UHGV virus genome: UHGV-0179105
Origin: a virus
Length of the DNA: 12,347 nucleotides
Reading direction: 5' to 3' (one strand)
In this document: one piece after another, positions 10,765 to 12,347 of the stretch
Numbering within the stretch: position 1 is the first letter of the stretch
Layout: each line of letters starts with the position of its first letter
Position numbers and translations under genes: made by a program
Notes under the pieces: model-generated
The model's input: the letters and a program-made list of their open reading frames with translations, nothing else
What the model was told of the DNA's origin: nothing
The model's database searches: none

Positions 10765-11181
10765 TCAGGTTCCCTCCCCAGGTGTGAACGGCGTGTCCCA
10801 TTCGTTCCAGATCTCCATGATCTTGTCATGGCCGAGCTGCATATGGTGCGGCATATGGTCATCAATATCAAAGAGAAATTCAAGCTCGTCGTAAGGGTCG
10901 CTGCAGGGATCGCTGTACTTGTGCCCCACAATGTCCCAGCCGTCAATGATGTAGGTGCCGTTGTCCCAGTTGTCGCAGTCAAGGTTGTTGCAGGTGTTGA
11001 TGCGGCAGGCCCAGCCGTAACAATCATCGGTGGGGGAGCGGTATCCTTTCATTTTGCAGTAATCCAGGAAGCTCTGAACGCTGGTTGGACCGCCGTTCCA
11101 GTGGAGATAAACACCGATGGAAGAACTGTCATGCTGCGGGTCAGCGCTGCGGGAAGTGGTAATAACTGCACGGTTACCCAT
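10765..11181 (-). CDS. hypothetical Cys-rich protein, 138 aa
   Basis: Track ORF 10765..11307; preferred start ATG 11181 (MGNRAVITTSRS...) with AAAGGAGA 7 nt upstream; the longer start would overlap the upstream gene by about 130 nt. Confidence 0.6.
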   Translation of the reverse strand: MGNRAVITTSRSADPQHDSSSIGVYLHWNGGPTSVQSFLDYCKMKGYRSPTDDCYGWACRINTCNNLDCDNWDNGTYIIDGWDIVGHKYSDPCSDPYDELEFLFDIDDHMPHHMQLGHDKIMEIWNEWDTPFTPGEGT

Positions 11182-11365
11182 GGTAAAGTCTCCTTTCAAT
11201 ATCTTCCTTGATACTGAGGCGGTCAAGGACATCATAAAGGGATTCGGTCGAGCCGTTGTAAAAGCCAACACCGTAGGGATCTGTGCGGGAACCGTACTGT
11301 GTTTCATTTTCGGAGAGCAAATCGGTGATGGCTGCTTTGATATCGGATTCGGAATAAGTTTTCAT
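11174..11365 (-). CDS. hypothetical protein, 63 aa
   Basis: Track ORF 11174..11539 starts at a TTG with no RBS in GC-rich repeat DNA; internal ATG 11365 (MKTYSESDIKAAITDLL...) has GAGGT 8 nt upstream. Confidence 0.55.
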   Translation of the reverse strand: MKTYSESDIKAAITDLLSENETQYGSRTDPYGVGFYNGSTESLYDVLDRLSIKEDIERRLYHG

Positions 11366-11387
11366 AATATGTAACCTCATTTCAAAT

Positions 11388-11426
11388 GGGTTCCGGGACA
11401 TTGCCGGACGCTCCGAGCGTGAACCC
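11388..11426. other. nested inverted repeats (compound stem-loop)
   Basis: GGGTT (11388-11392) pairs with AACCC (11422-11426), enclosing CCGG-GACATTG-CCGG (11393-11407) and ACGC-TCCGA-GCGT (11408-11420); read by eye, no folding energy computed. Confidence 0.4.
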
Positions 11427-11432
11427 GAAGCG

Positions 11433-11460
11433 CCGGTCAAAAGAAAGGAAGATGACCAGA
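11433..11460. repeat. imperfect direct repeat, copy 1 (CCGGTCAAAAGAAAGGAAGATGACCAGA)
   Basis: Pairs with 11504-11528; shared core CCGGTCAA..GAAAGGAAGA..CCAGA with small indels; inside the GC-rich noncoding island. Confidence 0.7.
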
Positions 11461-11503
11461 TGGACATGGAATCACCACAAACCATGCCCGGTGGTCGGAC
11501 GAA

Positions 11504-11528
11504 CCGGTCAAGAAAGGAAGAAACCAGA
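11504..11528. repeat. imperfect direct repeat, copy 2 (CCGGTCAAGAAAGGAAGAAACCAGA)
   Basis: Pairs with 11433-11460; about 71 bp apart start to start. Confidence 0.7.
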
Positions 11529-11562
11529 ACGCCCGGCAATACCCCGGAACGGTTATTGTAAG

Positions 11563-11697
11563 CTAAACGTACTCCTCACGGATGGAGAGCAATTCATTCC
11601 AGGCTTCGCGAATGGTGTCAGCAGAGCAGAGGAAGGTGTTGCCGTAGAAGATTTCGTAATGGCCGCTTTCGCCGCCGATGTGTTTAAGGTGGAACAT
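11563..11697 (-). CDS. hypothetical small protein, 44 aa (alternative start 11745 gives 60 aa)
   Basis: Track ORF 11563..11745; ATG 11745 has no SD and a hairpin immediately upstream; in-frame ATG 11697 (MFHLKHIGGESG...) follows AAGGAGG with a 4-5 nt spacer. An antisense plus-strand ORF (11386..11724) overlaps, so the coding call is uncertain. Confidence 0.4.
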   Translation of the reverse strand: MFHLKHIGGESGHYEIFYGNTFLCSADTIREAWNELLSIREEYV

Positions 11698-11716
11698 GAA
11701 GCCTCCTTGTTTATTA

Positions 11717-11741
11717 ACTGTTGAATTGTGTACTCTATAAT
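11717..11741. repeat. 25-bp direct repeat, copy A (ACTGTTGAATTGTGTACTCTATAAT)
   Basis: Matches copy B at 23 of 25 positions by direct reading; lies between the hairpin and the RBS of the 11697 start. Confidence 0.8.
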
Positions 11742-11748
11742 TCATGAA

Positions 11749-11776
11749 GTAAAACCGGATGGGCGTCCGGCTTTAC
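11749..11776 (-). terminator. hairpin (terminator- or attenuator-like) between the direct repeats
   Basis: Minus-strand RNA GUAAAGCCGGA-CGCCCA-UCCGGUUUUAC forms an 11-bp stem including one G-U wobble; the same position is an A-C mismatch on the plus-strand transcript, which argues for function on the minus strand. The U-run is only 4 nt and partly inside the stem, so terminator strength is doubtful. Confidence 0.3.
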
Positions 11777-11778
11777 TT

Positions 11779-11803
11779 ACTGTTGAATTGTGTATTCTAC
11801 AAT
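11779..11803. repeat. 25-bp direct repeat, copy B (ACTGTTGAATTGTGTATTCTACAAT)
   Basis: Matches copy A at 23 of 25 positions; overlaps the -10 element of the candidate minus-strand promoter. Confidence 0.8.
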
Positions 11804-11821
11804 ATCACAATCGCTTTGCAA
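11794..11821 (-). promoter_or_regulatory. candidate sigma70-type promoter
   Basis: Minus strand reads TTGCAA (11821-11816), 16-nt spacer, TAGAAT (11799-11794); each hexamer matches consensus at 5 of 6 positions; located in the 204-bp gap upstream of the 11697/11745 start. Confidence 0.35.
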
Positions 11822-11901
11822 TTACAATGGGCTTGAAAGAATTGCGCAAAATAGGTGCGCTCTAGCTAGTATCATTAAAATTCATATTGACTCCTTATCT
11901 G

Positions 11902-12114
11902 TCACAGGTCAAACTTGATATCGCAACCCTGGCGTTGAAGCTCGGCGAGTTTGGTGATGATGGCATAGTGGATGTATTGCGGGGTGGTGGAGATATCGGC
12001 TTCACAGCGTTTGAAAGGGTAGGCGACGATGAAATTGCGGTCACGGTTCTGGATTTCATACCAGTCTTTATCTCGATTGTATGTAACAAATACGATGGGT
12101 TTACGGCGTGCCAT
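11902..12114 (-). CDS. hypothetical protein, 70 aa
   Basis: Track ORF 11902..12138 begins at a TTG; in-frame ATG 12114 (MARRKPIVFVTYNRDKDWYE...) has AAAGGAG 7 nt upstream. Confidence 0.6.
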   Translation of the reverse strand: MARRKPIVFVTYNRDKDWYEIQNRDRNFIVAYPFKRCEADISTTPQYIHYAIITKLAELQRQGCDIKFDL

Positions 12115-12134
12115 GTAGGTGCTCCTTTCCAGAA

Positions 12135-12290
12135 TCAATCCTCGTAGAATGTGATGGCAGCATTGTGCTCAAAGCTGTAGATGATAGACTTGATATAATC
12201 ATCATCTGCGGTGCGAAAGGCGCGCTCGGCTTCCTTTTTGGTGGTTCCGAACATCCAGGAATAAGCGAACAGGAATCGCTTCTTTAACAT
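12135..12290 (-). CDS. hypothetical small protein, 51 aa
   Basis: Not in track. Hand translation MLKKRFLFAYSWMFGTTKKEAERAFRTADDDYIKSIIYSFEHNAAITFYED; AAAGGAG 9 nt upstream of ATG 12290. Confidence 0.5.
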   Translation of the reverse strand: MLKKRFLFAYSWMFGTTKKEAERAFRTADDDYIKSIIYSFEHNAAITFYED

Positions 12291-12308
12291 GGGTGGAAAC
12301 TCCTTTCA

Positions 12309-12347
12309 TCACGCAATCGCACTTTTCTTGCTGTCACGGATGGGCAG
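12309..12347 (-). CDS. 3' end of a gene entering from beyond the window end (partial)
   Basis: Open minus-strand frame ...LPIRDSKKSAIA then TGA at 12311-12309, overlapping the RBS of the next gene; only 12 codons are visible, so this is weak. Confidence 0.3.
   Translation of the reverse strand: MPIRDSKKSAIA

Follow-up and report, generated by a model that had tools for sequence, protein, structure and literature searches.

Paired repeats in a gap between two small phage genes are copies of a dispersed box that changes in concert across related human-gut phage genomes

Two copies of one box lie in the gap between g2 and g3

The virus genome UHGV-0179105 is a metagenome contig of 12,347 nt (ENA ERZ1034818 NODE_385), analyzed here at its full length and referred to as the window. 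Its small genes are tightly packed and all lie on the minus strand. The subject of this analysis is the gap between two of them, a 70-amino-acid (aa) gene, g2, and a 44-aa gene, g3, in which a first-pass annotation made from the sequence alone had described two 25-bp direct repeats bracketing a hairpin and overlapping a promoter candidate. The two repeats are copies of a recognition box of about 20 bp, TTnTAGAATACACAATTCAAC in this window, and the box is part of a dispersed cis-regulatory set.

Read along the minus strand, which is the gene strand, the gap runs from the stop codon of g2 through a mini-open reading frame (mini-ORF), a small GC hairpin, a promoter, box 1, a second hairpin, box 2, and the Shine-Dalgarno (SD) sequence AAGGAGG to the ATG of g3. 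The repeats lie where they had been placed, copy A at 11717-11741 and copy B at 11779-11803, with 23 of 25 positions identical and 62 nt from start to start, and the similarity stretches to 41 nt at 80% identity. Box 1 is copy B (ATTGTAGAATACACAATTCAACAGT; 11779..11803, minus strand) and is homologous to the site termed c in related genomes, while box 2 is copy A (ATTATAGAGTACACAATTCAACAGT; 11717..11741, minus strand) and is homologous to site d. A promoter scan returned the same minus-strand candidate that had been proposed earlier, TTGCAA-16-TAGAAT (11821..11794), with the -35 hexamer at 11816..11821 and the -10 hexamer at 11794..11799; 9 of its 12 positions match the sigma-70 consensus hexamers. 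The -10 lies inside box 1, which overlaps both it and the predicted start, and a TAGAAT-like hexamer stands at the matching position in all four boxes of this sequence type (V1, described below).

The hairpin between the copies (11747..11778, minus strand) is also present, with a stem of 13 bp rather than the 11 bp claimed (arms 11747-11759 and 11766-11778). It has a GCCGGA/UCCGG core, carries UUUUACUU as its 3' arm, and resembles an intrinsic terminator. The earlier assignment to the minus-strand transcript is upheld by folding energies, -18.9 kcal/mol for the minus-strand RNA versus -15.2 kcal/mol for the plus-strand RNA, which has an internal mismatch; the minus-strand value corresponds to a z score of -6.9, and none of 200 shuffles folded as well. 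Box 2 ends 8 nt before the SD AAGGAGG, read from the sequence at 11702..11708 on the minus strand, and the ATG of g3 follows at 11697. The ORF of g3 (11563..11697, minus strand) has a perfect SD and is the first gene past the boxes.

Tandem-like duplications of short segments are frequent between phage genes, and the pair might be a functionless local duplication or a chance similarity. However, a degenerate 25-mer pattern allowing up to three mismatches matched only these two sites in the window, and none of 200 dinucleotide shuffles yielded two matches. The two-box arrangement is moreover retained in five sequence-unrelated versions among relatives, and the box recurs at syntenic sites kilobases away. 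These comparative data effectively refute a functionless origin, the probability of which we put at close to nil.

The box recurs at intergenic sites across a large phage genome

Exact-protein look-ups and protein-guided scans retrieved more than 100 related loci from human-gut metagenomes and IMG/VR (contigs from this set carry L numbers here). Because many of these contigs span 139 to 151 kb, the family is an uncultivated human-gut phage of about 145 kb, and it carries a tyrosine integrase. The host is a gut Firmicute, one g3 homologue being labelled as a Neglectibacter timonensis metagenome-assembled genome.

In every contig covering the region, the core motif occurs at four syntenic places, a to d. 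Two of them, c and d, are in the g2-g3 gap. Site b lies about 70 nt upstream of the tyrosine-integrase start and points away from the integrase, and site a falls after the integrase stop, ahead of the SD of the following gene (141 aa). Further along, site e is in the promoter of a cassette made up of a PemK-like toxin gene and a 323-aa gene; site f, past this cassette, precedes the SD of a 219-aa gene by 11 nt; and site g occupies the 43 nt that separate an 89-aa gene from a co-directional 360-aa gene. Site g came from a scan of IMG/VR with a 15-mer pattern of the most common box type, V2, which returned mostly chance matches. We derived a position weight matrix from 39 distinct V2 copies of the box. 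It was informative over 20 positions, TTCACAACACAYAWTTCAAG, and at a lenient threshold it matched the box sites only, with no weak extras and with no matches in shuffled sequence. In total, seven strong boxes, all intergenic, were found in 62.7 kb of contiguous sequence from one 142.9-kb contig. The search for further copies of the 25-mer that the first-pass annotation had recommended was therefore positive in complete relatives, at seven boxes in 63 kb. Exact V1 box patterns, when run against IMG/VR, recovered no family member and one unrelated chance match.

Boxes a, d, f, and g end 4 to 11 nt ahead of an SD, and boxes b, c, and e are associated with promoters. The five boxes other than b and e follow the direction of the downstream gene; the promoter-embedded b and e are reversed, and box e is opposed in direction to both of its neighboring genes. 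Read in reverse complement, box b supplies the -35 hexamer and the spacer of the integrase promoter, with TATAAT at exactly 17 nt in all five box types, the -35 hexamers being TTGAAT, TTGAAA, TTGATT, TTGATA, and TTGCAA in V1 to V5, respectively. The promoter at site e is of analogous design, TTGAAA-17-TATAGT ahead of the PemK-like toxin cassette. The operator-plus-leader arrangement that had been suggested for the g2-g3 gap was largely right in spirit; its scope as a local device was too narrow, the set including the integrase promoter and other genes.

The surroundings of site e were observed in L035 (13744-16158), in which an opposite-strand CI-like helix-turn-helix (HTH) gene and a 102-aa gene are followed by the PemK/MazF-like toxin gene and the 323-aa gene. 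The inverted boxes e and f bracket the last two genes in the same layout as boxes b and a bracket the integrase.

Box types change in concert within each genome

Comparison of the related loci revealed five types of box. V1 (TTnTAGAATACACAATTCAAC) is found in this window and in L011, L012, L014, and L206; V2 (TTCACAACACAYAWTTCAAG) is found in most contigs; V3 (CCACAAWTCRAGATARR) in L228, L190, and L199; V4 (TTCTTGATGGGAnATATCAAGTC) in L224 and L225; and V5 (CTACTTATGGTATTGCAAGTA) in L226 and L227. In each genome that covers all four sites, boxes a, b, c, and d all carry that genome's own type. Two short contigs led us to predict co-variation in V3, and L228 bore the prediction out. For V1, co-variation covers boxes a to d, L216, the sole contig extending past the window, ending (at 15876) about 30 nt before the expected box e. 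In sliding windows, V1 and V2 genomes were 90 to 100% identical over most of the region, with sharp drops at the box-bearing segments. For window positions 11701-11850, identity was 0% to any V2 locus and 93 to 96% to other V1 contigs. A few unrelated mosaic genes and insertions also diverge between V1 and V2 genomes.

Such concerted change of dispersed sites of about 20 bp on a near-identical background would be the signature of a single reader with a shifted specificity; the alternative is recombination that homogenizes the sites. The proposal that the repeats are recognition sites of a regulon gains from this pattern, in that the boxes of one genome co-vary across five sequence types.

The order of promoter, box 1, hairpin, box 2, SD, and g3 is retained in all five types. 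Box 1 is accompanied by TTGACA-17-TACAAT in V2, by TTGACA-17-TATTCT in V3, and by TTGATT-17-TACAAT with an extended -10 TG (TGn) in V4 and V5. An internal transcription start, as the first-pass annotation had envisaged, is plausible because a sigma-70-like promoter lies just upstream of or overlaps box 1 in every type. The suggestion that 62 nt represented six helical turns was dropped, since box-to-box spacing is not conserved and ranges from 62 nt in V1 through 44, 59, and 43 nt in V2, V3, and V4 to 41 nt in V5. The position of box c relative to the promoter also shifts, from over the -10 and start in V1 to about +8 to +27 in V2 to V5.

A leader hairpin that follows or encloses box 1 was found in all box types, in agreement with the earlier description. 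V1 and V3 have an independent GC stem and a T-run between the boxes; the V3 stem, of 7 bp and GC in composition, is followed by UCUUUUAAAA and is unrelated to the V1 stem. In V2, V4, and V5, the hairpin encloses box 1, and only pyrimidine-rich sequence comes after it. Classical attenuation, which had been raised as a possibility, is unsupported because no antiterminator alternative appeared among the predicted folds; the minimum free energy and centroid folds of the V1 leader both contain the terminator hairpin only.

The start codon of g3 also differs with box type. In V2 genomes (L001 at 10413, L021-L033, and other V2 loci), the start is ATC or ATT, 8 nt past the SD, and gene callers miss g3 in those genomes for that reason; it is ATG in V1, V3, V4, and V5. 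The V2 leader is without a clear terminator, and two different ways of holding g3 expression low may be in play.

The boxes might instead be sites of the adjacent tyrosine recombinase or the ends of mobile cassettes, in which case recombination would homogenize them and segments could become inverted or excised. The integrase (a and b) and the PemK-like and 323-aa cassette (e and f) each stand between inverted boxes, inverted arms separated by a 7- to 8-bp spacer make the V4 and V5 boxes reminiscent of a core site, and among the proteins compared none tracks box type apart from the integrase N terminus. In V1 the arms are weak, however, and V2 and V3 have none, the boxes of these two types having no dyad symmetry. 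Every retrieved contig covering the region has one order and one orientation, with no inversion or deletion junction seen, and integrases that are just 67% identical share the V2 box. The fixed relations of box to promoter and box to SD would also be left unexplained, and we consider a recombination site very unlikely.

A second alternative is that the box is a phage-specific promoter or activator element, recognized by a phage RNA polymerase, sigma factor, or activator in the middle or late phase and restarting transcription after terminators, with a type-specific sequence analogous to T7 versus T3 promoter specificity. A motif of about 20 nt that is largely asymmetric and highly conserved would suit such a role, as would its location directly upstream of SDs and often just past a terminator-like hairpin, the orientation of five of the seven boxes with the downstream gene, and the TAGAAT-like -10 hexamer in all V1 boxes. 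Yet box e points against both neighbors, box 1 would fire straight into the terminator-like hairpin, and a separate consensus sigma-70 promoter is kept just upstream of box 1 in V2 to V5. The V2 to V5 boxes have neither a consistent -10-like hexamer nor a -35 at a fixed distance, and no RNA polymerase or sigma gene was present among the proteins scanned, which represent a minor part of the genome. A promoter element of this kind is distinctly unlikely. The box core was additionally compared with known hexamers and sites: neither CAYAWT taken as a -10 nor TTCACA taken as a -35 has a partner hexamer at a fixed distance, and LexA, Spo0A, and integration host factor (IHF) sites gave only poor matches by eye.

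A dispersed operator regulon as the proposed function

The reading that we favor, to which we give about an even chance of being correct, is a dispersed operator regulon in which the boxes would be read by one sequence-specific, phage-encoded DNA-binding factor. All of the contexts described above would be covered only if a single factor reads the box in double-stranded DNA. At boxes b and e, the site lies inside a promoter and is never transcribed by that promoter, and it would therefore be recognized as DNA. We infer a DNA-binding protein as the reader, repression as its effect, and termination at the hairpin; repression is inferred because the box-embedded promoters are near-consensus.

In the g2-g3 gap, a factor on box 1 would occlude the internal sigma-70 promoter, the -10 and start of which the box overlaps, and a factor on box 2 would act as a second lock, a roadblock to transcription running into g3 and the genes that follow. 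The result would be a two-step lock, in which box 1 closes the promoter and the leader terminator and box 2 halt what still enters. On boxes b and e, which occupy the non-transcribed -35 and spacer, the factor would compete with RNA polymerase at the integrase and toxin-cassette promoters. On boxes a, d, f, and g, it would block polymerase entering the next gene.

Several observations weigh against this operator model. Seven sites in 63 kb is far below the number in mycobacteriophage L5. Box symmetry is uneven, V1 to V3 being asymmetric and V4 and V5 having inverted arms of 5 to 7 bp (CTTGAT-N7-ATCAAG in V4 and TACTT-N11-AAGTA in V5). Boxes a, d, f, and g, together with c in V2 to V5, are transcribed, which leaves room for a role at the RNA level, and a terminator 30 nt past the promoter is odd for a simple repressed promoter. 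No reader protein that co-varies with box type was found among the candidates tested, and the available V1 sequence (about 27 kb) contains no V1-specific protein beyond the first 12 or so codons of the integrase.

Some of these same observations point to control at the RNA level, whereby an RNA-binding protein or a trans-acting antisense RNA (anti-box) would act at ribosome-binding sites on translation or termination. The antisense RNA could arise by read-through of the reversed boxes b or e, and either base-pairing or one RNA-binding specificity would explain the concerted change. Four boxes stop 4 to 11 nt short of an SD, box 1 of V2 to V5 is part of the transcript and lies there in a hairpin loop or arm, and box e is in the path of the rightward transcript of the 102-aa gene, which would carry the anti-box. 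The failure to find a co-varying protein also fits an RNA reader. Against this, boxes b and e lie upstream of the starts of their own promoters, and the exact geometry of -35 plus 17 nt in five types points to a DNA-level constraint. V1 box 1 overlaps the -10 and start and would therefore be only partly transcribed, the variable W (A or T) in V2 boxes would not be accommodated by a single complementary RNA, and an antisense transcript is not documented. We regard RNA-level control as unlikely.

We also entertain, as a tentative possibility, a more novel reading: a stoperator-like transcription-silencing regulon outside the actinobacteriophages, with a new kind of reader (a protein unrelated to the L5 repressor gp71 or a trans-acting antisense RNA) and at least five mutually exclusive specificities, which would have arisen as the dispersed boxes were replaced in concert. 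The set is unusual in two respects: the integrase promoter draws its -35 and spacer from a box, and metagenomes reveal the five specificity types directly. If the operator model is true, a compact and readily recognized control code in this family of abundant gut phages would link the integrase, the toxin cassette, and early-gene blocks to one reader. The box types would then be immunity-like specificities that could be typed from metagenomes and would predict cross-regulation or exclusion among co-resident phages, and the stoperator concept would be widened beyond mycobacteriophages. Box DNA used as bait would offer a handle on the regulator in a genome in which almost no protein has a recognizable function.

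Candidate readers of the box

Candidates encoded near the boxes were compared with box type. The integrase was rejected because those of L001 and L003 are 67% identical and both genomes have V2 boxes; only its first 12 or so residues track box type, and they are encoded inside the replaced DNA patch, in physical linkage with box b. Neither the 141/145-aa protein, the 71-aa protein, nor g3 co-varies with box type, and g2 is identical in V1 and V2 genomes. A 156-aa minus-strand ORF proved to be the antisense of a hypervariable 80-aa gene, the alleles of which cut across box types. The CI-like HTH protein beside box e has an invariant DNA-binding domain, and a ribbon-helix-helix protein occurs in some V1 contigs only. 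No two-domain monomeric repressor of the gp71 type was found among about 60 proteins scanned.

In V5, a 108-aa protein with two tandem HTH domains (HTH_23 twice, with GerE and Sigma70_r4 matches) is encoded 1.3 kb upstream of the boxes (L226, 8412-8738), and no homologue was found in V1 to V4 loci. This protein could plausibly read an asymmetric site as a monomer, but it would not be shared by the other types.

Other features of the gap and of the phage family

The gene upstream of the gap, g2 (11902..12114, minus strand; stop TGA at 11904-11902), has a GGAG-type SD and is the last gene of the upstream unit. Its exact protein sequence was found in 225 collection blocks, and searches of Pfam, PHROG, and PDB sequences gave no match. 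The exact g3 protein was found in 11 contigs and matched phrog_19836 (E = 5e-5), and a PDB sequence search with g3 found nothing. Between the g2 stop and the promoter, we read a mini-ORF of seven codons, MNFNDTS*, with its own AAGGAG SD (11862..11885, minus strand). All box types retain it, the changes being partly synonymous (V2, MNYNDSS; V3, MKFNDSG), and this retention suggests that the mini-ORF is translated. A 5-bp GC hairpin (GCGCA...TGCGC) followed by a T-rich tract (11844..11860, minus strand) gave a terminator-like match in a scan and may weakly terminate the upstream unit, although V2 does not retain it. Of the promoter-like matches in the gap, the best one lies on the plus strand (TTAACT-16-TATAAT, matching at 10 of 12 positions; window 11714-11741) and overlaps copy A. 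It would yield an antisense transcript into the hairpin, and it is not conserved in V2 to V5.

Directly past the g3 stop lies a near-invariant, structured RNA-like element of about 160 nt (11390..11550, minus strand; RNAalifold, -66.8 kcal/mol). The predicted structure consists of a long closing stem and three hairpins and includes many G-U pairs, which are valid on the gene strand only; one compensatory change, C-G to U-A, was observed. Two CU-rich stretches (UUUCUUCCUUUCUU) resemble the anti-Shine-Dalgarno tail of 16S rRNA. The element is probably in one transcription unit with g3, and it is uncertain whether it belongs to the box system. Rfam returned no significant match in window positions 11000-12347 (best E = 0.58) or in L001. 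The idea that the boxes pair with this RNA was dropped because the RNA is the same in all box types.

Recognizable proteins in the family are few, those seen being Bro-N, GP88, DUF5052, PAPS reductase, Thg1, the PemK-like toxin, and the CI-like HTH protein. Megablast with the full-length window as the query matched no GenBank phage, an integrase profile found no relative in GTDB species genomes, and a tRNA search found none. Beside the integrase is an AT-rich, gene-free region of about 1.4 to 1.8 kb (L001, 1528-3343; L011, 2857-4247) with many promoter-like hexamers and a G-rich tract, GGGGTGAGGGAGACGGAGGGAGATGGACG; this region could hold attP, an origin, or non-coding RNAs. V3 and V4 genomes encode a reverse transcriptase (RVT_1) near ThiF-like and large genes (L224, 13838-15028; L228, 17804-19006), a few kilobases downstream of g3; these genes are absent from the window. 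In L052, a distant relative in which a 139-aa protein is 39% identical, a different 11-mer, GTGGGATTTAA, occurs three times (5765, 5989, and 6228) at intervals of about 230 nt and may represent an unrelated repeat system.

Comparison with known regulatory systems

Among the closest known systems is the operator/stoperator system of cluster A mycobacteriophages, with the L5 gp71 and TipsytheTRex repressors (PMC9283540, PMC6550527). In the L5-type system, one asymmetric site serves as an operator in promoters and as a "stoperator" in short intergenic spaces, with its orientation tied to transcription (PMC9283540). The box set resembles this system in the use of a single short site, for the most part asymmetric, within promoters and also in the narrow gaps ahead of genes, in the co-orientation of the intergenic copies with transcription, and in site sequences that vary in concert among related phages with distinct specificities. 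It differs in that the box is about 20 bp here and 13 bp there, that there are about 7 sites per 63 kb here and more than 20 per 52 kb there, and that the host is a gut Firmicute rather than an actinobacterium. The promoter-embedded copies are, moreover, reversed here and supply the -35, and a gp71-like repressor was not found among the proteins scanned. By analogy, the box set would work like an operator/stoperator regulon, but we do not file it as a member, because site length and the site number in the 62.7 kb covered differ and no cognate repressor was found among the proteins scanned.

Lambdoid immunity (cI/Cro with OR and OL) and the three-operator CI system of TP901-1 likewise have repeated operators at early promoters, and in them phages that are otherwise much alike have swapped operators, and with them specificity, giving heteroimmunity. 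The operators of those systems are dyad-symmetric and clustered in one immunity region beside the repressor gene, whereas the sites described here span more than 40 kb, for the most part have no symmetry, and were replaced in separate patches.

At the lambda CII promoters (P_RE, P_I, and P_aQ) and the MotA-box middle promoters of T4, the factor site straddles or replaces the -35 of dispersed promoters. The boxes share with these the occurrence at the -35 of dispersed promoters, an integrase promoter included. Unlike those promoters, the integrase promoter here has -35 and -10 hexamers that are already near-consensus at 17 nt, which suggests repression rather than activation, and most boxes have no -10 on that strand. 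In phage leader terminators, attenuators, and Q and N antitermination sites, a terminator-like hairpin stands about 30 to 60 nt past a promoter and before a gene block. The gap has the same succession of promoter and terminator-like hairpin ahead of genes, but no antiterminator fold is predicted as in leader attenuators, the hairpin is not homologous between variants, and the box at site g has no hairpin. On these comparisons, the boxes would be best described as a dispersed, co-evolving operator set of a sort that is known in kind.

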